Assembly (NCBI GenBank): GCA_029856365.1
Contig: JAHQWW010000105.1
Span: forward strand, 1-13,406
Length of the DNA stretch: 13,406 bases
Source of the DNA: Candidatus Hodarchaeota archaeon
Lineage (GTDB): Archaea > Asgardarchaeota > Heimdallarchaeia > Hodarchaeales > Hodarchaeaceae
Direction: 5' to 3'
How positions within the stretch are numbered: the first letter of the stretch is position 1; every line of letters starts with the position of its first letter. Both the position numbers and the translations under genes were made by a program. This document shows positions 1 to 13,406 of this stretch, piece after piece. Under the pieces are notes generated by a model. It was not told where the DNA came from, searched no databases, and worked only from the letters and a program-made list of their open reading frames with translations.

Positions 1-666
1 AGCTTCCGTTGTTATTGCAGCAATCTCTTCGTCAATAAATTGTGCATGAGTTGGAGCATCTTTTTCAGACATAACCCCTCCTGTTGAACAGATCTTAATG
101 ACTCCAGCACCTTGTCTGATTTGTTCTCGAGCTGCACGACGACATTCATCTACCCCATCAGCTATTCTTCCCATGGAATAAGGTCCTATAGCCCACTCCA
201 GTGGCAGCTCATGCGTATCTCCGTGTCCAGCAGTTTGTGTGATAATTTTATGGGCAGCTACAATGTGTGGACCTGGGATAGTGCCTTCTTCGATAGCTTT
301 CTTGAGATGGACGCTTACATCCGAACCAGCACATCTCACACTTGTGAATCCAGCTTCAATGAGTTTTTTGCTATCTGCAGTAGCCCTGGCAGCTCTCAAA
401 GCGGGCATATCCAGTACCCATTGAACAGGTTGCATAGATCGAATACCCATAAGGTGTAAATGAGCATCAATGAGGCCTGGCATTATTGTTTTTCCAGTTG
501 CATCAATTTCTTGTGCAGCTTGAGGAATTTGAGTTTCAATATCGAAATCACCTGACTCTGGAATTATAGCTACAATCTTCGTATCCTCGATCAAAATAAG
601 ATTGTTTTGTTGTGGGGGTACACCTGTACCATCAATAAGTGTTCCGTTTCTAATAGCAATCTTCAT
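1..666 (-). CDS. Metal-dependent amidohydrolase superfamily protein (Xaa-Pro dipeptidase/carboxypeptidase-like subgroup); N-terminal 222 codons, runs off the window start
   Basis: Manual minus-strand translation from the ATG at 666 gives MKIAIRNGTLIDGTGVPPQQNNLILIEDTKIVAI...IDATGKTIMPGLIDAHLHLMG...LIEAGFTSVRCAG...GTIPGPHIVAA...ITQTAGHGD...ADGVDECRRAAREQIRQGAGVIKICSTGGVMS...EEIAAITTEA, with no stop to base 1. It contains the PGLIDAHxH metal motif, GHGD, and IKxxxTGGV (carboxylated-Lys position). A GGTGA site lies just upstream. Confidence 0.93.
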   Translation of the reverse strand, partial: MKIAIRNGTLIDGTGVPPQQNNLILIEDTKIVAIIPESGDFDIETQIPQAAQEIDATGKTIMPGLIDAHLHLMGIRSMQPVQWVLDMPALRAARATADSKKLIEAGFTSVRCAGSDVSVHLKKAIEEGTIPGPHIVAAHKIITQTAGHGDTHELPLEWAIGPYSMGRIADGVDECRRAAREQIRQGAGVIKICSTGGVMSEKDAPTHAQFIDEEIAAITTEA

Positions 667-670
667 TAAA

Positions 671-675
671 TCACC
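671..675 (-). promoter_or_regulatory. Shine-Dalgarno-like GGTGA for the amidohydrolase
   Basis: The minus strand reads tttGGTGAtttaATG. GGTGA is the typical archaeal SD core. Confidence 0.65.
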
Positions 676-1000
676 AAACATTCCAAAGAGTTCTTGGAAG
701 TATTTTTTACAATCCTAAATAAATTTTCCATTAATCTAGATAAATTTAATTTCCTATTCAAAAAAAACCTGTTTTTCACTAGAAACAAAGGCCATATTTT
801 GATTTATAAGATTGAAATAGATATATTTTCCAGATAAAAACCCACAAGTTGGTTTGTCACTCTATTAACTAATAAGAATATCAAAACATATAAAAATTAA
901 TTAAAAGAGACAATTAGTATCTAACTCCTTTGGTAATAGTCTTAAAAATTCACCTATATTGATAAGAAAAACCCTTTAATTTAGTAATGAGGTTGTCTCA
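676..1000. promoter_or_regulatory. AT-rich divergent promoter region between the amidohydrolase (-) and the membrane protein (+)
   Basis: Non-coding and very AT-rich, between head-to-head genes. Several TATA-like words occur (e.g. catataaaaa near 887-896), and GAGGT precedes the TTG at 1001. Exact promoters cannot be assigned. Confidence 0.5.
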
Positions 1001-1984
1001 TTGGCAGAAAAAGTTAAAAAAGGTAGATACACTTTTGATTTGAGTGATGGCTTTGGTTCAGAAGATGTAAAGGCCATCTTCGCTAGTATTTGGCGGTTCA
1101 TTAAGGATATACTAAAAGTTATTTTTTGGCCATATGTCTGGATCTTTCGTGTTTTTGGGCGTTCTATCCGTTTTGTTAGAACCAAAGAAGCAGCAGAAAA
1201 AGCTCTAAATAAAGACGAACGTTGGTTTATGGAAAGCATACCAACCTTCTTTATTTTCGTCGGACTTTTTTCAGGGATTCTATTATCAATCCTAGTATGG
1301 CTTTTTGGGACTGATGTTATAGATGAGATTCTCCGAAGAATTACTGGGCTTGAAGGCTTTTTACAAGCGATTTATGATATTTCAGCTTTAATTATTGAAG
1401 CAATTTTAACAGTAATTGGACTTGGTTATAGACCCGATGGAACCGAACGCAGAAGTGGGATTATTGATATTCTCCGATTCCTAATCGAGCTTTTATGGGG
1501 TGGCTTAGTAGATAATCCTTTAACTCTCTTTATAGGAATTGGTGTTGTTGGAGTTATTATTGCTGTGGTCTTGATAGTATTATCAGAAACAGGAATAGTC
1601 TCAGCTTGTATAAAAATTGTTTCAAAGTCGTTTAATTTCGTTTTTACAGCCCCCACGAGGATTTTTGATACTTTAAATGGGATATATCTAATGTTTAATC
1701 GGGTACTGAGTTCATTAATTATTGGATCTGAACGACTTACAAATAGGACAATAGCATTTCATAGAAAGAATTTGCTCTTATCTTATGCTCTGGGTATCTA
1801 TACATTTTTCAGTGGATTATTTGTGTTAGCGTCCCAACCAGATTTCTTCAGTGACGTTACTAGTGCAGTTATCTTCATTATAATAGTGTTATTAGTAGTT
1901 GGAATCGGTGTGGGTATTATTGAAATGTTTCTCATTGTTCGATTCCTTGATATAATGTCCCGTGGGAAATATAACGTAGATTGA
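1001..1984 (+). CDS. Hypothetical multi-pass membrane protein (327 aa)
   Basis: TTG start after GAGGT. Several long hydrophobic segments (FFIFVGLFSGILLSILVWLF, LFIGIGVVGVIIAVVLIVL, YALGIYTFFSGLFVLA, AVIFIIIVLLVVGIGVGIIEMFLIV) alternate with amphipathic helices. No family recognised. Confidence 0.8.
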   Translation: MAEKVKKGRYTFDLSDGFGSEDVKAIFASIWRFIKDILKVIFWPYVWIFRVFGRSIRFVRTKEAAEKALNKDERWFMESIPTFFIFVGLFSGILLSILVWLFGTDVIDEILRRITGLEGFLQAIYDISALIIEAILTVIGLGYRPDGTERRSGIIDILRFLIELLWGGLVDNPLTLFIGIGVVGVIIAVVLIVLSETGIVSACIKIVSKSFNFVFTAPTRIFDTLNGIYLMFNRVLSSLIIGSERLTNRTIAFHRKNLLLSYALGIYTFFSGLFVLASQPDFFSDVTSAVIFIIIVLLVVGIGVGIIEMFLIVRFLDIMSRGKYNVD

Positions 1985-2024
1985 TTTGAGTTTATGCAGC
2001 TCAAATTCAGCAGTATCGTGGTTA

Positions 2025-2073
2025 ATTTTCCTCATTTTCTTTTTTTTCTTTCTTGAGTTTTATTTTCATCTTT
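2025..2073 (+). terminator. Oligo-T/pyrimidine tract, probable archaeal-type terminator
   Basis: Several consecutive T-runs (ttttcctcattttctttttttt...) start about 40 nt after the stop at 1984. Confidence 0.55.
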
Positions 2074-2093
2074 AGGTTTGGGTATTCACAGAG

Positions 2094-2120
2094 TTCTCAT
2101 AATATTGTAAATTATGAGAA
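2094..2120. promoter_or_regulatory. Perfect 10-bp inverted repeat TTCTCATAAT-N7-ATTATGAGAA, candidate operator
   Basis: Arms at 2094-2103 and 2111-2120 are exact reverse complements. They lie just upstream of a TATA-like tttaataa (2128-2135) and 68 nt before the MFS start. Confidence 0.5.
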
Positions 2121-2188
2121 GATTACATTTAATAAGAAAAAAAAAATAGAAGAAATTTCAATTTGAACAACCCCTTGGGTAGTCTTTC

Positions 2189-4147
2189 ATGATAGATAAG
2201 GAAGAAAATATAGAAAAAACTGTCAATGAGAAAAAAACAAATCGCATATATTTAGTTGCAGGAATACTTTGCGTCCTTTTTTTTGTTGCTTCTGCTTACG
2301 GGGTTCAACGTACCATTCTTTCTACTTTCGCTGAAGAACAACTTGAATTTTCAAAATGGTTTGAAAACTGGGCATGGATATCTATTGCCTTTACTTTAAT
2401 GGGTTTTGGGTTGTTTAAAGCCTTAGCAGGCCTTTTTACAAGTGCATATACTCAGAAAATCGGAACCAAAATTATGATTCTTCTAGGAGTGGGGTGTTTT
2501 GTTATAGGAGGCATTCCTCTTCTACTTTCAGAGGGAGATCCTTTATTTTTAGGCATTGGAAATTCAATTCTTGGTGTTGGTGAAGGACTGCTTTATGCAA
2601 GTGCAATGACCTACCTTTCTGATGTAAGTACTGCCTCCAGACGTGCTCAATGGATGGGTGTCATGGAACTGGCAGTTTATGGAGGGTATTCTTTTGGTGC
2701 AATAGTGGCTGGTTGGATAACTATGCTTACAAACAAGTCTGGTGCAGCCTTCATCTTCTCATCTATTGTCTCTCTCTTCGGTTTAATAATTACAATTACT
2801 GCTGTGAAGTCAAGTGTCAAATCTGATACCCAAGTAGTGTTAGAAAAACTTCGTACCCCAATTGAAGGAGCTAAAACTGTCCCACGGTTTAGAAATCTCA
2901 TAATTAGGCCAACAGTAATTATTACCTGTTTAAACGGCCACATTAGTAAAATGGTGGATAGTATCATTGTATTATTCCTCCCTCTATTACTTAGCAGTAC
3001 ATTATATGGTTATGGTCTTTCAATTGAAGAAACAGGATTAATCACAGGAGTTTTTACATTGTCTTGGGCTATAATAATGCCTCTAGCAGGGAATATTAGT
3101 GATAAGATTGGTCGAAAAGCACCTACATTTCTTGGTCTAATTGTAGAAGGTCTAGCTTTATTCGGTTTACAAGCGGGAATTTCCCCATTCCCAGTTTTAT
3201 TCATCCTTTCAGCATTAGGAGGAGTTGGTGTGGGCCTTTATTATCCTATATTACCATCGATTTCAGTTGATATCTCTCCTGAAGGTCAAAAACCTAAAAT
3301 TATTGGCTTTTATCGTGCTGTGAAGGATTTCGGTTACTTTACTGGTCCTTTAATGGCTGGATTTGTCGCCCAACTTTGGTTTGATTCAAATCCAGAACGA
3401 TTAGACCAGATTTTACATGTACCTCTACATACAGCAGGTTTATTGTTATTGATTGGAGCATTTAGTTCTGTTGTAGTCCGAGAGACACACCCAGGTTGGG
3501 TTCAATTCCAGACATGTTTAAAACATGCTCAACTAGTAGAAGCATCTGTAATTCAGGGAACCAAGGGATTATTAGTATATCTCGAACAAGAAGCAATAGA
3601 AAAATCAAATTTTCAGAAAAGACTGGTAAGATACTCACAACAAGCAAAAGAATTAGAAGTGCAAGCTGATCAACAATTAGAGGAAATTGCAGTACAAACT
3701 TACAAAAGTTTGGTTAAAACACCTGATGCTGGGAATTTCTTACGAATTGCAAGACGCTTAGATCGTGTTGCTGGATTAACCTTAGGAGCATTATTTCGGA
3801 TTCAAACTATTCCTATTGAAGAAGTACCCCCCTTGATTCAAGAGAAACTACATGATGCCGCAATTGCGTTACGTGGGTTGGTTAGAACAACTGTAGACAT
3901 TCTGCAAGTGCTTGATATCAAGTTAGACGCTGTTTCTGGGGTTTATCGTATAGTTCGTGATCGTGAGTCAGATCTTGATTTGTTGTATCAAATAATGAAT
4001 CAACATCTTTTCATTGCTTCTCGTGGAATGCATTATGGGACTTGGTATGCAATTAAAGATGTCATTAACATAATCGAGCAAGCTGCTGACTCTGCTGAAG
4101 ATGCAGCAGAGGTTATTAATTTTCTTGCCATAAAATATAAAACGTAA
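2189..4147 (+). CDS. MFS transporter fused to a C-terminal DUF47/PhoU-like (phosphate transport regulator) domain, 652 aa
   Basis: Residues ~20-432 hold about 12 hydrophobic helices, with MFS motif A GNISDKIGRK in the second half and a degenerate copy SAYTQKIGTK in the first. Residues ~437-652 are soluble and helical with DUF47-type motifs KELEVQAD, RIARRLDRVA, RDRESDLD and IEQAADSAEDAAEVI. Confidence 0.85.
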   Translation: MIDKEENIEKTVNEKKTNRIYLVAGILCVLFFVASAYGVQRTILSTFAEEQLEFSKWFENWAWISIAFTLMGFGLFKALAGLFTSAYTQKIGTKIMILLGVGCFVIGGIPLLLSEGDPLFLGIGNSILGVGEGLLYASAMTYLSDVSTASRRAQWMGVMELAVYGGYSFGAIVAGWITMLTNKSGAAFIFSSIVSLFGLIITITAVKSSVKSDTQVVLEKLRTPIEGAKTVPRFRNLIIRPTVIITCLNGHISKMVDSIIVLFLPLLLSSTLYGYGLSIEETGLITGVFTLSWAIIMPLAGNISDKIGRKAPTFLGLIVEGLALFGLQAGISPFPVLFILSALGGVGVGLYYPILPSISVDISPEGQKPKIIGFYRAVKDFGYFTGPLMAGFVAQLWFDSNPERLDQILHVPLHTAGLLLLIGAFSSVVVRETHPGWVQFQTCLKHAQLVEASVIQGTKGLLVYLEQEAIEKSNFQKRLVRYSQQAKELEVQADQQLEEIAVQTYKSLVKTPDAGNFLRIARRLDRVAGLTLGALFRIQTIPIEEVPPLIQEKLHDAAIALRGLVRTTVDILQVLDIKLDAVSGVYRIVRDRESDLDLLYQIMNQHLFIASRGMHYGTWYAIKDVINIIEQAADSAEDAAEVINFLAIKYKT

Positions 4148-4199
4148 AGGATTATCAAAGAAATTTAGAAAAATTAGGTCCTACTCGGTGTAATCTATA

Positions 4200-6800
4200 G
4201 TGAACACATCGATTGACTTTGTCCTCTTAGATGCCGATTACGAGATTTATGTGCGTGATGGAATTAAGAAACCGCTACTTCGTCTCTGGGGCCGATCTAA
4301 TAGCAAACGAGTTGAAATACGAGTCAGTGGTTTCCTTCCATACTTTTACGCGGAAGCTTCAGAAGAAAAAATAAGGAAAATTCTGAACAAACGAGGAGAA
4401 CAGACAAAAGACTGGTTAATTGAAACTTTTAGATGTAAAAAACGCACATTTTTTGGTGGATCATCACGAATTGTAACCCAATTGATTGGAAACATCCCTT
4501 TTCTTGTTCCTGAAATCAAGCAACTTCTTCAACAAGCTGGAATCGAGGTTCATGAAGCAGATATTCCTTTTACACGTCGATTCTTGATTGATAGGAATGT
4601 ACGGGCTTTACATCCTGTCACAGTGATAGGGACAATAATTAAGCAAGAGAATGATATACTTATCGCAGAAGCTCCATTTAAAAATATCTCACAAAAAACA
4701 GAAGCTTCTAGTGATTATCAACCCCTCCTTCTCGCTTTTGATATTGAAGTTGATCATAAACAAGGTGAAACAATACACGAATTATTACTTGTGAAGAAAA
4801 GAAGAATTACAGCGATCTCAATGGCCTGGGGTACAGTGGAAACTGAAAACCCAGACTCGAAGGTTATTATTCTAGAAAATGATAGCGATATTGCAGAAAA
4901 TGCACTATTGATTAAATTTTTAGAGACTGTTAAACAAACCAAGCCTGATGTTTTACTCTCATTCAATGGAACTTTTTTCGACATCCCTTATTTGATAGCT
5001 CGTCTCTCAAGATATGGAAAGTCATTAGGAGAACTAGCACTTTTCACAGGACTTCAAAAGGATATTATTAAATCAAAAATTCCTGTGGAAAGTTACAAAT
5101 TGAAGGGGCGAGCTGTAATAGATTTATTGCCAAAAACATGGGGAATTCATCCTATTAGTGGGCAAAAAACACTCGACTCGGTGTCAGAAGAAGTACTGGG
5201 TGAGTCTAAAGTCAAACTTGAAAAGAGTATTGGAGAATTATGGAGAGCTGGGGTACTTGGATCTAAAGAAGATGCTCAATTATTCCGAGAGTATTCACTG
5301 AAAGATGCTATTCTTACTTTTAAGTTAGCTTCTGAGTTAGGAGTGTCAAATTCTATTGAATTATGTCGTCTAACTGGGTATCCCATACCTGAAGGGATTC
5401 TTTCGACGAGTCGTAATATTGGTGAGCTCGAATTAATGAGGATTCTTCATTCGAAGGACATATTTATACCGTCGAAACCATCTCCTACAGAATTAAAAGC
5501 TAGGAAAGAATTTAGTCGAAAATACCCCCATCTTGGTGGGTGGGTAATAGACCCTTCTGTTGATGAAGCCACGTTTGTTGGAATATTCGATTTCCGATCA
5601 TTATATCCTAATATTGTACGAACACACAATATCTCTGGGGAAACTTTAATTGCCAATTCAGAAGGATATCCTCCAGAGCAGCGATTTTTAAAAGAGCCTC
5701 GTGGTGCCCTCGCGATTTTAATGGATAGAATTTTAGAACAACGGTATCAAACACAAGAGATATTAACAAAAATAAAGGAAAATAGGGCACAGGATCCGCA
5801 AAAACAGACAGATCTTCTTGAAAAGAGACAAATATCATTAAAATTAATGGCCAACTCTCTTTTAGGTGCATCAAACTATCCCCGAGGAAGATTTTACCAC
5901 CATATAATAGCAAATAGTATTACAGCCATCGCGCGGGAGTTATTAAGTGAAAAACTAGAGAATTGGACTAATGAGTACTCAGAAAGGCATCCATATGATG
6001 TATTATTAAGATATGGTGACACAGATTCCATTTTTGTTGAATTTATATTACCAAATCTCAGTTTGACAGATTTCCAGCAAGAATTGCCATTAAAAGCGAG
6101 AACCCGAAAAGAAAAGCAGCTCTTAGTTGCAATTAACGATTATCGTTCATTCTTAGCCCAGAAATTACCAGAATTTCTTGAATTACAGCTTGAGGATATA
6201 ACATCACGGATTATTTTGAAGAAAGGTCGAAAAAAAGCCTATGCTTATGTGTCTTTATTGACTAATAATATCATTATTAGAGGTTTTGAAGCTGTAAGAT
6301 CAGATTGGTCACCTCTAGCAAGAAAAGCACAACGAGAGCTTCTTGAGGCACTTTTAACTGATTTGTCAGATGAACGAAGAGAACATGCGCGCAGAGTGAT
6401 TTTTAATATTAGTCGAGCTATTCTACGTAATCCAGTTTCTCAACTGGTTAAAGAGTTAACCATTCGGGGTCCGCTGCGACGTTCTCCAGCTAAATATAGG
6501 TCAAAAACTCCAGCTGTTGGTGCTTTTTTACATTATTGTGAACAAAAGAATTTGGATCCAGAGCTAGAATGGAAAAAATGGGATGGTTTCCCTTATATTA
6601 TCGCAAAAGGTTCATCTAATGAGTCTCAATATCTTAGAGCTTATCATCCTGATGTTTTTCAACAAAATAAGAAAGAAATTGACCGATTACATTATGTGAG
6701 AGAAATCCTCGGAGCTAGTAAACGTTTTGGGATAAATATAAATGAAACTGAGGCGCAGCAAGGAGCTCTTATTATCCCATTAACCGTTTTCTTAAAGTAA
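4200..6800 (+). CDS. polB: Family B DNA polymerase, archaeal type (PolB3-like), 866 aa
   Basis: GTG start with GGTG at 4187-4190. Exonuclease motifs: ExoI FDIE, ExoII FNGTFFDIPYL, ExoIII YSLKDA. Polymerase motifs: A DFRSLYPNI, B KLMANSLLG, C YGDTDS, then KKAY and RGFEAVRSDW. Uracil-pocket-like segments: LDADY, LPYFY, VPEI, EADIPF. Confidence 0.95.
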   Translation: MNTSIDFVLLDADYEIYVRDGIKKPLLRLWGRSNSKRVEIRVSGFLPYFYAEASEEKIRKILNKRGEQTKDWLIETFRCKKRTFFGGSSRIVTQLIGNIPFLVPEIKQLLQQAGIEVHEADIPFTRRFLIDRNVRALHPVTVIGTIIKQENDILIAEAPFKNISQKTEASSDYQPLLLAFDIEVDHKQGETIHELLLVKKRRITAISMAWGTVETENPDSKVIILENDSDIAENALLIKFLETVKQTKPDVLLSFNGTFFDIPYLIARLSRYGKSLGELALFTGLQKDIIKSKIPVESYKLKGRAVIDLLPKTWGIHPISGQKTLDSVSEEVLGESKVKLEKSIGELWRAGVLGSKEDAQLFREYSLKDAILTFKLASELGVSNSIELCRLTGYPIPEGILSTSRNIGELELMRILHSKDIFIPSKPSPTELKARKEFSRKYPHLGGWVIDPSVDEATFVGIFDFRSLYPNIVRTHNISGETLIANSEGYPPEQRFLKEPRGALAILMDRILEQRYQTQEILTKIKENRAQDPQKQTDLLEKRQISLKLMANSLLGASNYPRGRFYHHIIANSITAIARELLSEKLENWTNEYSERHPYDVLLRYGDTDSIFVEFILPNLSLTDFQQELPLKARTRKEKQLLVAINDYRSFLAQKLPEFLELQLEDITSRIILKKGRKKAYAYVSLLTNNIIIRGFEAVRSDWSPLARKAQRELLEALLTDLSDERREHARRVIFNISRAILRNPVSQLVKELTIRGPLRRSPAKYRSKTPAVGAFLHYCEQKNLDPELEWKKWDGFPYIIAKGSSNESQYLRAYHPDVFQQNKKEIDRLHYVREILGASKRFGININETEAQQGALIIPLTVFLK

Positions 6801-6897
6801 AGAGTCAGTTCTCCCTCGGGAAAGCTCCTAATTGTCTTTTAGAGTACTAAAGCCCTTGTCAGCAGAATTTGAAAGGACCTGTTCATATTACTATTTT

Positions 6898-6945
6898 TTA
6901 GAACATGTCTACATTTTCTGTTCTAATGCTTGGTATCTTATTATA
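6898..6945 (+). promoter_or_regulatory. 8-bp inverted repeat TTAGAACA-N13-TGTTCTAA followed by TATA-like TTATTATA, candidate promoter/operator of the thioester protein gene
   Basis: Arms at 6898-6905 and 6919-6926. TATA-like word at 6938-6945, about 50-60 nt upstream of the start codons at 6993/7008. Confidence 0.35.
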
Positions 6946-6992
6946 GGAGATTATAGAGTTCCATTAACAAATAATTCGCTAATAAGGTCAAA

Positions 6993-9900
6993 ATGTGTGG
7001 TAAAACGATGAAAAAAAAGATTTTAAGTATTTTATTGCTAATACTCCTTAATCTTAATGTATTTTTCACTGTTGGTTTTTCTCAGTCAGTTGACAAGGCA
7101 GTACTGGATAATAATACAGAACTATCTCAAGAGAGATTCTCTAAAGATCTTTTTGATGTGGAACGGGAAATTAAAGCCATAGAAGATCCAATATATCCTT
7201 CTTCTCCGTCAAATTTTCAACTAGGTCCATTAAATACAAATAATTTCTCAGCTGCTCCTTCTCTTTCAATAAAAGATCAAGAGCGATCCATGATTATCAA
7301 TATTGATTTAGAGAAACAGGTGGTCTCTCCTGGAACACCCCTCAACTATGTTATTCAAGTGACCCAAGGACTCGAACCTGTGCGTTATGAGACTTTACTC
7401 TTAGAAATTATTAAAGGGGAATACTGGGGTTGGTACTTTTATTGGTTAGAAGATTATACTCCATATGAAAACCGCACAGTTTGGAGTGACCTGATTACAA
7501 CAGATATTGAAGGTGAGTACCAAGGAAAATTTACTCCTCCTTCCTCTGGCCGTTATTCCATTCTGGTTCATTCATCATCTACAGGTTACGTTCAAGAAAT
7601 TAGATCTTTTACTGTGGCTAATATTGCTTTATTTTGGCGTGTTTCGAGTGAATATGTTACTGGAGAAAATCATCAATCTGTTGCATATGTCTTAAATACA
7701 AATGATTTCTCCCCTGTTCCAAATGCGCAAATAGAATTATCTGGGATTACATATAATTATGATTATGATAGTAGTAAGTATGAGATTCAATCTAAACAGT
7801 TATTTTCAGGAGTGTCAAATGACCTAGGAATCGTTGAAATAGATTTTGTACCACTTAATAGCATTTCAGAGAATTATAACTTTCTAGCTAATCTCAGTGC
7901 TAGTTATAATGGCGAAACAATCTATATATCACGTGATATTTACCGAGGGGGGTATTACTGGGGATGGGATGGTTACAGTGAATATCAAAAATATGATTTC
8001 ATTGTAACAACCGATAAACCAATTTATTCCCCAGGTGAAACCATCCAAACTCGAATTCTTCTTTGGGAAAATGATTATCTAAAAGTAACTAAGGAACCTG
8101 CACAAACTTCCTTTATTCTGAAATTTCTATCTCCTTCTCAACACATTTTGCTTCATCGTCAAGTCACAACTAATTCCTATGGAGTTGCAACATATTCTTT
8201 CACGTTAGATACTGATAGTGAATTGGGAAGTTATTCCATTGTTACTCAAAAAGAAGATGTTGTTAGTTCTTTGCCAATCCGGGTTGATAAATATGAAAAA
8301 CCATCCTTTCGTGTTACACTAGGATTAGATCATGAATATGTTGCTCCAGGGGGAAAAGTCTCTGGCAATGTGACTGCAGAATACTACTTTGGAAAACCAG
8401 TCGCAAACAGTGAAGTTAAACTTACTATTGGAGATATAGATGTTCTTACTGGCATAACTGATATAGATGGATTTTGGGAATTTGAATACAGATTACCTAG
8501 TAAATCAACTCTCGAAGGTATGAGTGCAATTCCAATTAATGTAACAGTGATTGACACAGTGGGTCGAGAGGTTACAAGTTCCTCAGCAGTTCAGATTACA
8601 GATGAGGTTTATGTATGGGCTTATATCAATCCATGGTTTCCAAAAATAGGCGAAAATGTAACAGTCTACTTTGGTGCGTATCAATATTCGGAACGGGATT
8701 GGTCGTGGTGGAATTGGCGAGCTTTGACGAATGTAAAGGTGGAAGTTAAGTTATACGGGGTGTATTCTGATACTGATTTCCAATTAATTACCACTCTGAA
8801 ATCTAAAACAGATCTTAACGGCCAAGGTCAAATAGAAATTGATCTACCTCCTAAAATTCTAACTTCCTTTAACAGATTCAAGGGAGTCGTAGAAGTGAAC
8901 GCTGGCGATGGCAGAAAAGGATCATCAACATTTTACTTCACTGTTGATAGAAATTCAGTTGAAGTTAATCTTGGTACTAGTACCTATAAAGCAGGAGATA
9001 AGATTGAATTCGAGGTATTCATTCAAAACGTGGTTTCAAACACTCCCATTGATGGTAGCTTACAATTCCGAATTTTTGATTCTGATTATGACTTAATAGG
9101 AGAAGATATTCAGGATATTTCATCCCAAGGTGGTATTGTTAAATTTCAGCTGTCCTCCTTCGCTCCAAATGGTAAATATGTCATTTATTGTTACTTAGAA
9201 ACAACATATGATAGTGAATATGGTTCATGGACTTACTATAGGTTTTCAAAATCAGTTGAATTTCATGTTGGGGCTACTTACGAAATTTCTCTCACCGCTG
9301 ATAAGACCCATTATTCTTTAGCAGATAGTATTTCCATTTCTGGGCAGATTCAAGGTCAAACTCATGCTTCAGTGATGGTTCAATTCGTTAAAAAAGGAAT
9401 AGTAGTCACTGAGTATATTGATGTTTCTTCTACAACAATTTTTAATGTTAAAATCCAGAATATTCAATTCCTTGCCCCTCGCTTCTGGGTATATTCATTT
9501 GCTATCTTGGACGATGGTACCATTCTTGAAGCTTCCTTAAGCTTAGAGATCGACACCACACTTTTAGTGGAAGTGAGTTCCGATAAATCTGTGTACGAAC
9601 CAGGAGACACGGCCAAGATCAGTATCGAGATTCTTGATTCTAAAAACAAGGCTCTTCCTGCTGTTCTGGTTGTTTCGTTCATTGATAGTTCAGTATTTGG
9701 AGTTCAAGCAGACCCTGAAGCAGAACAAGAATATTTCAATGAACAAGAATACTGGCCTTCGGTATGGACAGTTGTTTCATGGAAGAGTCAGCAAAGATAC
9801 TGGTGGTTCTGGTGGTACGACATCTATCCTATCAGAAGGGGGGGATTCTTCGGCTATTATATGGAAGATGTAGCCTATAATCAAGAGTATGCTGAAATGG

Positions 9901-12900
9901 ATGAGGGCCAACCAGTTCCTGGATCTAATACACGGAAAGATAGCGCTGATGAGGCATCTACTCAAACAAAGCGAGAAATTCGGGATAACTTACCTGAAAA
10001 TGCTTATTGGAGTCCTTTAGTAATTGTGGAAGAGGGATATTTTGAGATGGATTTGCTCTTACCTGATACCATTGGTGAATGGACTGTACGAGTGGTAGCT
10101 ACTACGCAATCAGGACAAGGAATTTTGCATAAATACTCCTTTAAAACATTTCTTCCCTTTTTCGTTGAGATCAATAAAGAACCTTTTGTTTTACAGGATG
10201 ATGTGTTTATTATCAAAGGGATTGTATATAATTACCTTGACGAGCAAAATGACGTTGCCATCACTCTTGAGATTGAAACTGAAGTTGGAATACTTGTATT
10301 AGGGCGAAATATCCAAACTTTAAGGCTTCCAAGTGGATTCTTAGGATCTATCGGTTGGGCATGTTTAGCCCAAGAAGTTGGTTTCTTTAATATCACACTT
10401 TATGGTAATACCTTGGTAGAGGGGACTAATTATCAAGATGCCATCCGAAAACGTTTAGAGGTCGTTCCTAATGGAGTTACATCTGAAGTTAAGGCTAGTG
10501 GTTTTGTTTTTAGCGATCCAAGCTTTTCATATATCCGTTATTCAGAAACAGTCCAACAATCTGAGTTTCTTGAGCTTTCACTTGGCTTAGGATCAATAGC
10601 CCTCACATCATGGGAGAGATTGGTAAAATATCCTTATGGATGTACAGAACAAACGATTTCTTGTCTTATTCCTGATGCTTTAGTCTTGAAATACCTTGAT
10701 GAAACAGAGCAACTCACTAACAATACAGAAGAAACAATTCGAGATATGATTGTATCAGGATTATCTCGTCTTTATAGTCAACAACACAATGATGGAGGTT
10801 GGGGATGGTGGTACGATGATTCCTCCCGTCTATATATGACCAGTCTAGTCCTTTATGGCTTAGGAATGGTAAATAAAAGTGGATTCTATATTGACCCCAA
10901 TGTAGTTACGAATGCTATTAACATGATAAGTGTTCATCAGAATTCCGATGGTTCTTGGACACCTGATTCTTGGAGAGGAGTAGATCAAACATCATTCACC
11001 GCTTTTGTTCTAAGATCAATTTTACAGTGGAATAATTTGTATGAGTCTAGTTCTATATCAAAAGCACTGAGCTATATTACCAATGCTTGGAATGACGACA
11101 ATAAACGTTCTACATACTTAGCTAGTTTATATTTGGATAGTGTTCCTGGATCAGGATTTGGTCAATCTTCTTTCAAAACAACTCTCATCACTTATTTGAC
11201 GAATGAAGCTCAATTTTCTTCTGATGGTTATTATTATTGGACTTATACCACAGATGGGCAATACTGGCGAGCACTAGGAGGTGATGTTGAAATAACAGCT
11301 TTAGCTTTGAAGGCATTAGTTGAAAATGATCCCGCTGCTTTAATGCCAATCATTCGTTCAGCAGTTCAATGGTTGTTACAGCGTCAATCTTGGTATGGGT
11401 GGGGTAATACAGCTGATACTGCTGCAGCAATTTCCGCGATTGTGGCTCTTAGTCAAAGTGAAGTAAGCTCTGATGAGGATGCAGAAGTCACTCTAATTGT
11501 CAATGACAATATAATTGGGAGCTATGATCTCTCAATTTCCTCTCAACCTACAATCTATCTAGATCTGGAACAATATTTTGTTATAGGTGAGAATTTCATT
11601 GAACTGGAGAAACAAGGGCTGGGTAATGTGAGTTACTACTTTTATGGAAACCAGATACTTCGAAGCTTGCCTTCTATTGAACTCCCAACTGAAATAAGCA
11701 GTGTTATTGGTCAACAAGTCACCCTTCCTTTAACATTAACACCTACTTCCCCACAGATTTTTGCTTACAATTTATCAGTTATTCCACTTGATGGGGATCT
11801 CACACCAATGATTAATCTTCCTCAGTCAATTAACCAGCTTACTCAGCAAACAATAGTCAAATTTAATTATACAACTCCCTCTCAAACAGGCACATATGAA
11901 ATTCTTGGATTTGAAATCTCTTATCAATTATCAAATTTGGATAAAACAGAGTTTTCGCCTGGAATCATAACTCGAAGATACGGTCCTGTTCAGCTTACGG
12001 TTTCTAACTCAGCTTCAGCTGTTATTTTAAACATTCCTTCACTTTCTGACCCCTCTTTGACAACTAATATTGAAAAACCAAGTATACAAATCAGGAGTTC
12101 AAATGGGCTTGAATTATCACGAAGTTATTCACAGATGAAAGGTTTTCAAAAAGGGGATCTTGTCTTTGTTACTTTAACTATCACTAATACGGAGCAGACT
12201 GAGAATTTTCTTATGGTAGAAGACTATATTCCAGTTGGTTTCGAGCTTGATAAAAGCACTATTAAACATCCAGCAGAAACTTATGAGATTACTACATCTG
12301 GAATAACTTTTTTCTTCCCTGAATTAAAAGCTGGAACCATAGAGGTTAGTTATGGGCTGATTGCAATGAATGTTCGACAGTCTCTTGTATCTCCCGCGAA
12401 ATTATCAAGTATGTATGATGAGTGGGAAGTTACTAGTTTACCAACAATCCTAGGAGATGCTCGCATTTCAATAAACTCCTCTACTGGTGCAGTGGTACAG
12501 GATCTCGAACTGCCTATACTTGAAAAAGTATCTGTCGAAGAAGTTTTACTCGCATCTAAAGGTGTGTTGGACGTAGAAGTAGTAGCTTTAGATAACTGGG
12601 GAATTGCGAGTGTTAGAATCTTTATTAAACAATCTTCATGGAATGTATTTGAATGTTCAAAAGAAACCGATGAATGGAGAACCATAGCAACAGGACTCAG
12701 TGATGGTGACAGTCAAATTTACCTAGAAATAATTGATTTTGCTGGAAATGTCTTGGTTAGTGATCCATTTTCCAAATACATTGAAATTGAAGATCTTTTT
12801 GTTCCCGAAAAGATTCTACCCGTCTTAGGACTAATTAGTGTTGCATTGGTCACAGGAATAGCAGCAGGAGTCGCGTCTGGGATGTACCTAAGAAAGAAGC

Positions 12901-12908
12901 GCAGCTAA
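6993..12908 (+). CDS. Alpha-2-macroglobulin/complement-family thioester-containing protein; secreted, C-terminal transmembrane anchor, 1971 aa (true start may be ATG 7008)
   Basis: Signal peptide MKKKILSILLLILLNLNVFFTVGFS. MG-domain signatures TDKPIYSPGE, KYEKPSFRV, AEYYFGKPV, SDKSVYEPGD. Post-bait motifs IRDNLPENAYW, LPDTIGEW, PFFVEI. Thioester motif YPYGCTEQ (GCTEQ at 10638-10652). TED motifs QHNDGGWGWW, QNSDGSW, DVEITALAL, WLLQRQ...NTADT. Last MG domain GDLV...VEDYIPVGFE...SMY. Terminal TM helix followed by RKKRS. Confidence 0.95.
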   Translation: MCGKTMKKKILSILLLILLNLNVFFTVGFSQSVDKAVLDNNTELSQERFSKDLFDVEREIKAIEDPIYPSSPSNFQLGPLNTNNFSAAPSLSIKDQERSMIINIDLEKQVVSPGTPLNYVIQVTQGLEPVRYETLLLEIIKGEYWGWYFYWLEDYTPYENRTVWSDLITTDIEGEYQGKFTPPSSGRYSILVHSSSTGYVQEIRSFTVANIALFWRVSSEYVTGENHQSVAYVLNTNDFSPVPNAQIELSGITYNYDYDSSKYEIQSKQLFSGVSNDLGIVEIDFVPLNSISENYNFLANLSASYNGETIYISRDIYRGGYYWGWDGYSEYQKYDFIVTTDKPIYSPGETIQTRILLWENDYLKVTKEPAQTSFILKFLSPSQHILLHRQVTTNSYGVATYSFTLDTDSELGSYSIVTQKEDVVSSLPIRVDKYEKPSFRVTLGLDHEYVAPGGKVSGNVTAEYYFGKPVANSEVKLTIGDIDVLTGITDIDGFWEFEYRLPSKSTLEGMSAIPINVTVIDTVGREVTSSSAVQITDEVYVWAYINPWFPKIGENVTVYFGAYQYSERDWSWWNWRALTNVKVEVKLYGVYSDTDFQLITTLKSKTDLNGQGQIEIDLPPKILTSFNRFKGVVEVNAGDGRKGSSTFYFTVDRNSVEVNLGTSTYKAGDKIEFEVFIQNVVSNTPIDGSLQFRIFDSDYDLIGEDIQDISSQGGIVKFQLSSFAPNGKYVIYCYLETTYDSEYGSWTYYRFSKSVEFHVGATYEISLTADKTHYSLADSISISGQIQGQTHASVMVQFVKKGIVVTEYIDVSSTTIFNVKIQNIQFLAPRFWVYSFAILDDGTILEASLSLEIDTTLLVEVSSDKSVYEPGDTAKISIEILDSKNKALPAVLVVSFIDSSVFGVQADPEAEQEYFNEQEYWPSVWTVVSWKSQQRYWWFWWYDIYPIRRGGFFGYYMEDVAYNQEYAEMDEGQPVPGSNTRKDSADEASTQTKREIRDNLPENAYWSPLVIVEEGYFEMDLLLPDTIGEWTVRVVATTQSGQGILHKYSFKTFLPFFVEINKEPFVLQDDVFIIKGIVYNYLDEQNDVAITLEIETEVGILVLGRNIQTLRLPSGFLGSIGWACLAQEVGFFNITLYGNTLVEGTNYQDAIRKRLEVVPNGVTSEVKASGFVFSDPSFSYIRYSETVQQSEFLELSLGLGSIALTSWERLVKYPYGCTEQTISCLIPDALVLKYLDETEQLTNNTEETIRDMIVSGLSRLYSQQHNDGGWGWWYDDSSRLYMTSLVLYGLGMVNKSGFYIDPNVVTNAINMISVHQNSDGSWTPDSWRGVDQTSFTAFVLRSILQWNNLYESSSISKALSYITNAWNDDNKRSTYLASLYLDSVPGSGFGQSSFKTTLITYLTNEAQFSSDGYYYWTYTTDGQYWRALGGDVEITALALKALVENDPAALMPIIRSAVQWLLQRQSWYGWGNTADTAAAISAIVALSQSEVSSDEDAEVTLIVNDNIIGSYDLSISSQPTIYLDLEQYFVIGENFIELEKQGLGNVSYYFYGNQILRSLPSIELPTEISSVIGQQVTLPLTLTPTSPQIFAYNLSVIPLDGDLTPMINLPQSINQLTQQTIVKFNYTTPSQTGTYEILGFEISYQLSNLDKTEFSPGIITRRYGPVQLTVSNSASAVILNIPSLSDPSLTTNIEKPSIQIRSSNGLELSRSYSQMKGFQKGDLVFVTLTITNTEQTENFLMVEDYIPVGFELDKSTIKHPAETYEITTSGITFFFPELKAGTIEVSYGLIAMNVRQSLVSPAKLSSMYDEWEVTSLPTILGDARISINSSTGAVVQDLELPILEKVSVEEVLLASKGVLDVEVVALDNWGIASVRIFIKQSSWNVFECSKETDEWRTIATGLSDGDSQIYLEIIDFAGNVLVSDPFSKYIEIEDLFVPEKILPVLGLISVALVTGIAAGVASGMYLRKKRS

Positions 12909-12936
12909 TCTCTTCTTCTCCCCCACCTTTTTATTA
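12909..12936. terminator. 28-bp gap between convergent genes; pyrimidine/T-rich on the + strand, probable terminator of the thioester gene
   Basis: The gap reads tctcttcttctcccccacctttttatta. The minus-strand gene ends with three tandem TAA codons (12931-12939). Confidence 0.4.
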
Positions 12937-13406
12937 TTATCGCTCCTGTTCTGAAACAACAGACCGAATCTTTTTCAATTCAGTTAACATTTGTTTACGA
13001 AGAATAGCAATTCCTGTTGCGCGATCTTCTTCACGTTGTCCTTTAGGTTGAGATAAAGGGCTCGGAGAAGGTATTGAACTAGGTTTAGAAATTGATGGAA
13101 ACGAAATTTTTGGGATAGTTGGAGGTGTAATTTCACTTTTCGGGGATTCAATAGGTGCAGGAGTAGGAGAAGGTGCCGATGGAATTTCCTTTGGTTCGTC
13201 TGGCTTTTCAGGAAAGGAAAAACTAATTTTAGGACGGGTTATCGACTGTTCCGAGGGAATGGTTGGAGGTGAGGGTTTAGCATCAGGTGAAGGTTCTGTA
13301 ATTGGTGGTGTAGAAGGTTGTGGGGTAGTGGAGGGGGTTTTATGAATAATAGGACGTAGTGATGGAGTTTCAACAACTTCAACACTAGGAGTTGGCAATT
13401 CATCAG
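12937..13406 (-). CDS. C-terminal part of a Pro/Ser/Thr-rich disordered protein ending in an amphipathic helix (WH2-like); 5' end lies outside the window
   Basis: The frame stays open past the track's TTG at 13398 (…DELPTPSV…) to the window edge. About 120 aa of P/S/T/E/K low-complexity sequence is followed by EEDRATGIAILRKQMLTELKKIRSVVSEQER*. Confidence 0.8.
   Translation of the reverse strand, partial: DELPTPSVEVVETPSLRPIIHKTPSTTPQPSTPPITEPSPDAKPSPPTIPSEQSITRPKISFSFPEKPDEPKEIPSAPSPTPAPIESPKSEITPPTIPKISFPSISKPSSIPSPSPLSQPKGQREEDRATGIAILRKQMLTELKKIRSVVSEQER

Follow-up and report, generated by a model that had tools for sequence, protein, structure and literature searches.

An archaeal family of MFS transporters carrying a C-terminal DUF47/PhoU_div domain

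In this study we describe the fusion of a transporter of the major facilitator superfamily (MFS) with a DUF47/PhoU_div domain, encoded by a single gene of a Candidatus Hodarchaeota archaeon. The gene is found on contig JAHQWW010000105.1 of assembly GCA_029856365.1, in a stretch of 13,406 nucleotides (positions 1 to 13,406 of the forward strand) that is referred to below as the window. This fusion is genuine, is kept in several archaeal phyla and is not rare, and its architecture, fold, conservation and taxonomic range are established here.

In bacteria, three clades of PhoU-like accessory regulators have been reported, namely PhoU, which goes with Pst, PitR (PF01865), which goes with PitA, and the PhoU domain that NptA carries as a fusion. 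Each of them works with its own transporter, and for PitR and the fused domain of NptA a joint role with that transporter in phosphate homeostasis has been shown experimentally (PMC13170248, mBio 2026). That study deals with bacteria only and mentions neither MFS transporters nor archaea. The family reported here is therefore best regarded as one more form of the PhoU/PitR accessory-regulator theme, with a module of the PitR branch carried in cis on an MFS transporter. An earlier note, made from the letters of the window, had proposed a transporter with a built-in regulator, an idea that fits the way in which PhoU, PitR and NptA's PhoU domain each work with their own transporter (PMC13170248).

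Layout of the fusion protein and identity of its C-terminal domain

The reading frame runs without interruption over 652 codons. Pfam recognises MFS_1 across the first ~450 residues (E 1.8e-38) and PhoU_div/DUF47 (PF01865) at residues 484-648 with 27.2 bits, which places the window protein, taken alone, only marginally above the gathering score of 24.4 bits. The N-terminal tail counts 18 residues, and MFS and PhoU_div are the sole Pfam domains of the protein. NCBIfam gives weak generic MFS matches as well as TIGR00153, the DUF47 equivalog, under its cut-off. The AlphaFold2 model of the full-length chain (predicted local distance difference test (pLDDT) 84, predicted TM score (pTM) 0.79) displays twelve long helices between residues 19 and 429 and then a bundle of six at residues 440-649 (440-465, 472-506, 514-538, 548-577, 579-613 and 616-649). 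Reading frame, Pfam and model therefore agree with the description in the earlier note of one uninterrupted open reading frame joining an MFS transporter of about 12 transmembrane (TM) helices to a helical domain.

The C-terminal domain is a DUF47/PhoU_div domain. Its identity was settled by a diverse family profile and by comparison of folds, where narrower searches had failed: the single C-terminal sequence found no match in the PDB, a narrow profile of 13 sequences reached only E 0.78 to 3l39, and the hhalign comparison of the domain with three DUF47 proteins of the same genome was insignificant. With a profile of 33 family members, the best PDB match overall is the DUF47 structure 3l39 (E 3e-19), profile positions 437-622 aligning with residues 43-226 of the 3l39 chain, and 2iiu/2olt are matched at E 9e-16 via the C-terminal part. 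Moreover, PF01865 is matched by all 34 full-length homologues (best E 9.1e-18), and PF01895 (PhoU) has no match in the window protein and matches four of these 34 homologues only, weakly (best E 0.0013). Modelled alone, the domain forms six long helices with a pLDDT of 88. The top Foldseek matches of this model are the DUF47 structures 3l39, 2olt and 2iiu only, with TM scores of 0.7-0.8 over ~220 aligned columns, and after them come genuine PhoU structures (1t8b, 4q25, 1t72, 1xwm, 2i0m and 1sum). The likeness to DUF47/PhoU proposed in the earlier note is thus confirmed by Pfam, by the family profile against the PDB and by the predicted fold.

The C-terminal domain is the best-conserved part of the protein, with a mean column identity of 83% against 65% for the whole protein. 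Conservation was counted over 33 diverse family members (20-65% identity), and the invariant residues are G38, R41, G129, G133, E160, G170, G308, R309, G345, R376, D380, P435, H446, E490, D494, D525, E593, D597 and E630. In the profile alignment to 3l39, K487, E490 and D494 correspond to KDMEREGD and E630 to LEKTTD. Position 634 of helix 6 is Asp in 21 members and Asn in 12, and position 638 is Asp in 25 of the 33. The two E-x-x-x-D...(D/E) repeats that had been pointed out in the earlier note are indeed present, since E490xxxD494, D525, E593xxxD597 and E630 do not vary and D634 and D638 are mostly kept. The same note had read the acids of the first repeat as replaced by basic residues, suggesting altered ligand binding. 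The first repeat has kept its conserved acids, E490, D494 and D525 being invariant, and altered ligand binding is not supported, as the invariant acids of the family are intact; only the second and third acids of the helix 3 motif differ, the DDVID of 3l39 reading DRVAG in the fusion protein.

Between the two domains, P435 of the linker never varies among Asgard and Thermoproteota members, and E/D432, T433 and W437 hardly do; the pattern (R/K)-E-T-R/H-P-x-W is kept, together with H446, from Asgard to Thermoproteota. Basic residues of the MFS core are concentrated in the TM2-3, TM6-7, TM8-9 and TM10-11 loops, and because of this distribution both termini, hence the DUF47 domain, should be cytoplasmic.

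Distribution and origin of the fusion

Full-length homologues sharing 58-92% identity are encoded at 13 Asgard genome loci, two of which are on complete chromosomes (CP070695 and CP070760); the close homologues are labelled Hodarchaeales, Heimdallarchaeota or "Promethearchaeota". The fusion frame is also found at 33 metagenome loci of a Thermoproteota-type branch, in a scan run with a narrow Thermoproteota alignment, a very diverse alignment having no usable conserved stretch. An exhaustive profile search of 1.84 billion representatives returned ~35 fusion clusters at 50% identity, the proteins of which are 590-690 residues long and colinear with the profile from ~10 to 646. All named members are archaeal (Hodarchaeales, Kariarchaeaceae, Baldrarchaeia, Thermofilum, Thermoprotei, Korarchaeota and one Nitrososphaerota metagenome-assembled genome), the Thermofilum cluster counting 57 members, and the ESM Atlas cluster of the fusion is 100% Archaea. 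Of 200 sampled genomes of the phylum, 16 have the fused-type domain, which is nearly always part of a frame of ~620-690 residues; three frames are shorter and seem truncated. No genome of three large families in this sample yielded the domain (0/43, 0/40 and 0/19). A scan of 25 genomes of the class with the Pfam models found fusion-length frames in ~14.

The earlier note had considered that an assembly artefact would overturn its reading. An artefact of assembly or gene calling, joining an MFS gene to a separate DUF47 gene, is refuted by independent assemblies and keeps a negligible probability: the same frame and the conserved linker recur in CP070695 and CP070760, in 11 other genome loci, in the 33 metagenome loci and in the ~35 clusters.

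In a quick maximum-likelihood tree, for which standalone DUF47 proteins were sampled from Heimdallarchaeia only, the fused domains form one group (Shimodaira-Hasegawa-like approximate likelihood ratio test (SH-aLRT) 88), apart from the standalone DUF47. This grouping fits a single old fusion event. Genome G085, of the same class as the genome of the window, holds on its contig C25 two fusion-length DUF47 frames of 647 and 657 residues (37713-38294 and 39885-40469), ~2 kb apart, which are probably a tandem duplication.

The proteins are already public with both Pfam domains computed, and are labelled "MFS transporter" or, in JGI, "predicted phosphate transport protein (TIGR00153 family)". The view of the earlier note that such a fusion had not been described stands in so far as our literature search found no description of an MFS-DUF47 fusion; the architecture is nevertheless not rare, being spread over those ~35 clusters across archaeal phyla. 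The features of the gene and of its upstream flank are collected in Table 1.

Table 1. Positions in the window of the fusion gene, its domains and motifs, and the upstream features
Feature	Window position	Strand	Basis or remark
Whole gene, MFS-DUF47 fusion protein, 652 residues	2189..4147	+	Single open frame; stop codon 4145-4147
MFS core, residues 1-429, short N-terminal tail and 12 TM helices	2189..3475	+	Pfam, AlphaFold2, Foldseek
Codon of R41, TM1	2309..2311	+	Invariant, 33/33
TM7 motif H251-x-x-K254-x-x-D257, candidate proton and substrate site	2939..2959	+	Family alignment
MFS motif A of the C-terminal half, G301-NISDKIGRK, TM8-TM9 cytoplasmic loop	3089..3118	+	Family alignment
Conserved linker after TM12, residues 430-439, V-R-E-T-H-P-G-W-V-Q	3476..3505	+	Family alignment
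DUF47/PhoU_div domain, residues 440-652, two repeats of three helices each	3506..4144	+	Pfam, family profile, AlphaFold2 and Foldseek
Helix 2 motif E490-x-x-x-D494 (with K487, A493)	3656..3670	+	Invariant, 33/33; aligns with EREGD of 3l39
Codon of D525, helix 3	3761..3763	+	Invariant, 33/33; aligns with first D of DDVID in 3l39
Helix 5 motif E593-x-x-x-D597	3965..3979	+	Invariant, 33/33; aligns with ENQAD of 3l39
Helix 6 motif E630-x-x-x-D634-x-x-x-D638	4076..4102	+	Family alignment
Upstream neighbour, 327-residue multi-pass membrane protein	1001..1984	+	No Pfam or NCBIfam match
T-rich tract past the upstream gene, putative archaeal terminator	2030..2062	+	Read from sequence

The MFS core, its candidate cargo and the gene neighbourhood

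In the AlphaFold2 model, the TM helices span residues 2-51, 62-91, 93-113, 118-146, 149-181 and 185-205 in the first half and 241-269, 279-307, 310-327, 334-361, 365-400 and 405-429 in the second, and the loop 206-240 is cytoplasmic. Foldseek returns generic MFS matches only for the whole model (TM score up to 0.83), those of the core with VMAT, sialin, NorA, OxlT, VGLUT2, SLC37A2 and DgoT being about equal. In the comparison of the profile with the PDB, the core comes closest in sequence to NorA (E 1.4e-17), YajR (E 2.9e-14), VMAT, LtaA and QacA, with SLC37A2 at E 6.5e-13 and the fungal phosphate carrier PiPT at E 7e-8; among NCBIfam models, that of the DHA1 superfamily matches the core best.

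Motif A of the C-terminal half is intact (G-x-x-S-D-x-x-G-R-K), G308 and R309 being invariant and D305 present in 27 of the 33 members. Its N-terminal counterpart (2429-2458, residues 81-90) is present as SDxxGRK in most of the fusion family and degenerate in the clade of the window protein, which reads SAYTQKIGTK and has lost the Asp and the Arg. In TM7, position 254 is basic and position 257 is Asp, each in 32 of 33 members. Full hidden Markov model alignments to GlpT and DgoT swapped the MFS halves, pairing D257 with DgoT D46 and GlpT R45, and forced alignments of the N-terminal half were used instead. In these, R41 aligns with R47 and E132 with E133 of DgoT (hhalign probability 86%). DgoT R47 contacts the substrate carboxyl and couples binding to gate closure, DgoT E133 is a protonation site, and R47, R126 and E133 (DgoT numbering) are the conserved charged residues of the SLC17/ACS family (PMC11649914). 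The invariant TM1 arginine of the fusion, placed by alignment opposite the substrate arginine in DgoT and GlpT, thus favours an anionic cargo, without identifying it.

Cargo, ligand and gating can be proposed from these features. The last TM helix of the MFS secondary carrier runs via a short rigid linker into the cytoplasmic six-helix DUF47 domain. The carrier would move, most likely, an anion bound by the invariant R41 of TM1, the K/R-x-x-D pair of TM7 would provide proton coupling, and the invariant acidic cluster of the DUF47 domain would bind a cytoplasmic ligand, which may be phosphate, metal-phosphate or a metal. We give about an even chance to this reading, in which the DUF47 domain would throttle the anion carrier that bears it according to a cytoplasmic ligand. 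For the cargo, phosphate or a similar oxyanion would be the leading, though unproven, candidate.

Several observations weigh against this reading. The alignment of R41 with GlpT R45 in the N-terminal half is weak (hhalign probability 23%), E132 is retained in 15 of the 33 members only, and the position of SLC17 R126 (DgoT numbering) is occupied by Asn (N125) in the fusion protein. The core is closer to drug/H+ antiporters, such as NorA and YajR, than to phosphate carriers. Neither the fusion nor its nearest DUF47-less relatives reach any curated MFS family cut-off in NCBIfam (for TIGR00881, 24.5 bits where the cut-off is 407), so that the cargo is not assignable from these scans. The core does not qualify for the phosphate and organophosphate MFS families PHS (PiPT) and OPA (GlpT, PgtP, SLC37), and judged by its sequence it belongs to no named phosphate family. 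In the quick tree, the fused domain is a clade of its own, not nested in the PiT-linked DUF47, and stands apart also from the DUF47 linked to ATP-binding cassette (ABC) systems in the same class. Finally, neither Asgard nor Thermoproteota loci show a conserved phosphate gene next to the fusion, the neighbours being a family-B DNA polymerase (PolB) and an alpha-2-macroglobulin (A2M) in the former and Taw1, NucS and FeoAB, on the opposite strand, in the latter. Of the self-regulated phosphate or organophosphate transporter put forward in the earlier note, there remain the two-domain architecture, the cytoplasmic placement of the domain after TM12 and the analogy with known regulators; the phosphate or organophosphate cargo stays a conjecture, which family scans, conserved neighbours and the position outside the PiT-linked clade do not sustain.

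In favour of the regulated anion carrier, DUF47 is a transporter-accessory module in the same genome, as standalone DUF47 genes adjoin two PiT transporters (contigs C34 and C3) and an ABC operon of oxyanion type. No PiT (PF01384) gene lies near the fusion, and the fused domain is not a standalone protein of ~210-230 residues beside such a gene. The ABC importer operon (contig C86, L051:5414-10102, minus strand) ends with a third standalone DUF47 of 233 residues; it comprises a 574-residue double permease and two TOBE_2 ATPases, and a Sir2 gene follows. The double permease is most like sulfate, tungstate and molybdate permeases, all under their cut-offs. ABC-linked DUF47 accounts for 14 of the 28 standalone DUF47 loci sampled in the class, and no description of a pairing of DUF47 with a non-Pst ABC system was found in the literature consulted. 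The family profile of the fused domain gives 79 bits to the ABC-linked paralogue and 42 and 17 bits to the two PiT-linked ones. Also on the side of the regulated anion carrier, a search of this genome, which is 84% complete, detected no PstC that reached the curated cut-off (best 34.9 bits against 196). Two PhoU-domain matches lie on its contigs C46 and C197.

The ABC-linked gene bears on a competing explanation, according to which the core would export or carry, in the manner of DHA1 proteins, some unrelated substrate (for instance a metabolite, a metal chelate or a drug-like compound), and DUF47 would be a generic regulatory or metal-sensing bundle without any link to phosphate. Partnership of DUF47 with a non-PiT ABC system in the same genome would suit this explanation, as would the separate clade of the fused domain, the best matches of the core (NorA, YajR, VMAT, LtaA, QacA and the DHA1 superfamily model) and the presence of FeoB and FeoA near the gene in ~13 Thermoproteota loci. 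The Feo genes, however, are on the opposite strand in a housekeeping block and are absent from the Asgard loci. An invariant arginine in TM1, instead of an acid, is unusual for cation or drug exporters, and R41 aligns with the anion-binding arginine of DgoT and GlpT. Furthermore, every experimentally studied PhoU/PitR module acts in phosphate homeostasis (PMC13170248). Taken together, we regard an exporter or carrier of this kind as rather unlikely, yet as the main contender.

The protein could also be mainly a sensor, or transceptor, with the MFS part reporting an external substrate by conformational change and the DUF47 domain signalling to cytoplasmic partners, with little net transport. 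PhoU and PitR modules do signal to regulators in bacteria (PMC13170248), and the clade of the window protein is devoid of the N-half motif A, whose usual role is to stabilise one conformational state. Set against this, the C-half motif A, the TM7 K-x-x-D, R41, E160, R376 and D380 are conserved, as in a working carrier, and a transceptor would sit uneasily with the lack of a partner gene conserved across phyla. We consider it improbable.

The fusion protein looks self-contained, and no partner gene is conserved across phyla beside it in the Asgard and Thermoproteota loci. The window, of ~36% G+C, also holds PolB and a giant A2M gene. In Asgard loci (L005-L017), the genes for the 327-residue membrane protein, the fusion, PolB and A2M follow one another on one strand (window 1001-12908), an order kept across Hodarchaeales/Heimdallarchaeia down to 58% identity of the fusion protein. 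The 327-residue protein is encoded directly upstream on the same strand in 11 of the 13 Asgard loci and in no Thermoproteota locus; since it adjoins the fusion in Asgard loci only, a functional link between the two is unproven. Given the T-rich tract that follows its gene, the fusion gene probably has its own promoter. The gap of 52 bases between the fusion stop and the GTG start of PolB (4148-4199) contains an A/T-rich stretch and no T-tract, and PolB may be co-transcribed with the fusion or have a promoter inside this gap.

In one Thermoproteota lineage, the fusion has NucS-(M48)-Taw1 on one side and, on the other, a radical-SAM gene with FeoB and FeoA behind it, each of these genes being on the opposite strand (L024, L029, L030, L032-L037, L044, L047 and L050; FeoA only in L025, L026 and L028). 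This arrangement could reflect no more than synteny, or could hint at a metal link; as a firm clue to such a link it was set aside, in view of the opposite strand, the housekeeping block and the restriction to one lineage. In another Thermoproteota lineage, a creatininase-family gene follows the fusion.

Comparison with known transporters and regulators

The fused domain resembles PitR/DUF47 proteins (PF01865; 3l39, 2olt, 2iiu) in family and fold, in its two repeats and in their acids (K..E...D, D, E...D, E...D), and like PitR, the accessory regulator of PiT, it accompanies a transporter. It differs in being covalently attached to the C-terminus of the MFS, whereas PitR is encoded beside the PiT gene, and in its helix 3, which keeps only the first Asp of the 3l39 DDxxD. 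NptA of S. aureus (PF02690 + PF01895) likewise carries a PhoU-superfamily module in cis on a secondary transporter, and its fused PhoU domain contributes to phosphate homeostasis (PMC13170248); the fusion described here differs in its MFS instead of Na_Pi_cotrans, in its DUF47 instead of PhoU repeats, and in its archaeal origin. PhoU with PstSCAB shares the helical-bundle fold (Foldseek) and the logic of a transporter-attached regulator, but is a separate protein that acts on the ABC ATPase and on a histidine kinase.

SPX-MFS carriers of the plant PHT5/VPT1 type are MFS transporters with a built-in cytoplasmic helical sensor domain. The SPX domain is N-terminal, reads inositol pyrophosphates and is unrelated to DUF47 in sequence and fold. 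Pfam finds no SPX domain in the fusion protein, including its short N-terminal tail, and the likeness is a functional analogy only, with no evidence of common descent. The parallels with NptA-PhoU and SPX-MFS drawn in the earlier note are therefore sound as analogies.

On the transporter side, the core can be compared with the ACS/SLC17 carriers (DgoT, sialin, VGLUT) and GlpT, as R41 aligns with DgoT R47 and GlpT R45 and E132 with DgoT E133, and sialin, VGLUT2, DgoT and SLC37A2 are among the Foldseek matches of the fusion; it differs in scoring far under the cut-offs of these families, the similarity to DHA1 being equal or better. E. coli YajR (3wdo), near the top among the sequence matches of the core, provides a precedent for a soluble domain after TM12. 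The additional C-terminal domain of YajR has a small ferredoxin-like fold in place of the DUF47 bundle.

The mechanism considered likely here enlarges a known theme: the family contributes an MFS partner with the module in cis, and the same genomes contribute an ABC-linked DUF47, both in archaea, where phosphate homeostasis is poorly understood. A single chain with its regulator attached is convenient for structural and biophysical study, and could reveal how such a PhoU/DUF47 bundle communicates with the membrane carrier and which ligand it reads, two points unsettled across the superfamily. We tentatively suggest, as possible rather than probable, that the family may represent an archaeal fourth PhoU-superfamily/transporter pairing, not described before, in which an MFS anion or phosphate carrier with a PitR-like sensor in cis would be self-gated by cytoplasmic phosphate or oxyanion. 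If true, this pairing would be a prokaryotic functional counterpart of the eukaryotic SPX-MFS proteins, common in Heimdallarchaeia, and, together with the ABC-linked DUF47 operon, it would make DUF47 a general governor of oxyanion transport, not a partner specific to PiT.

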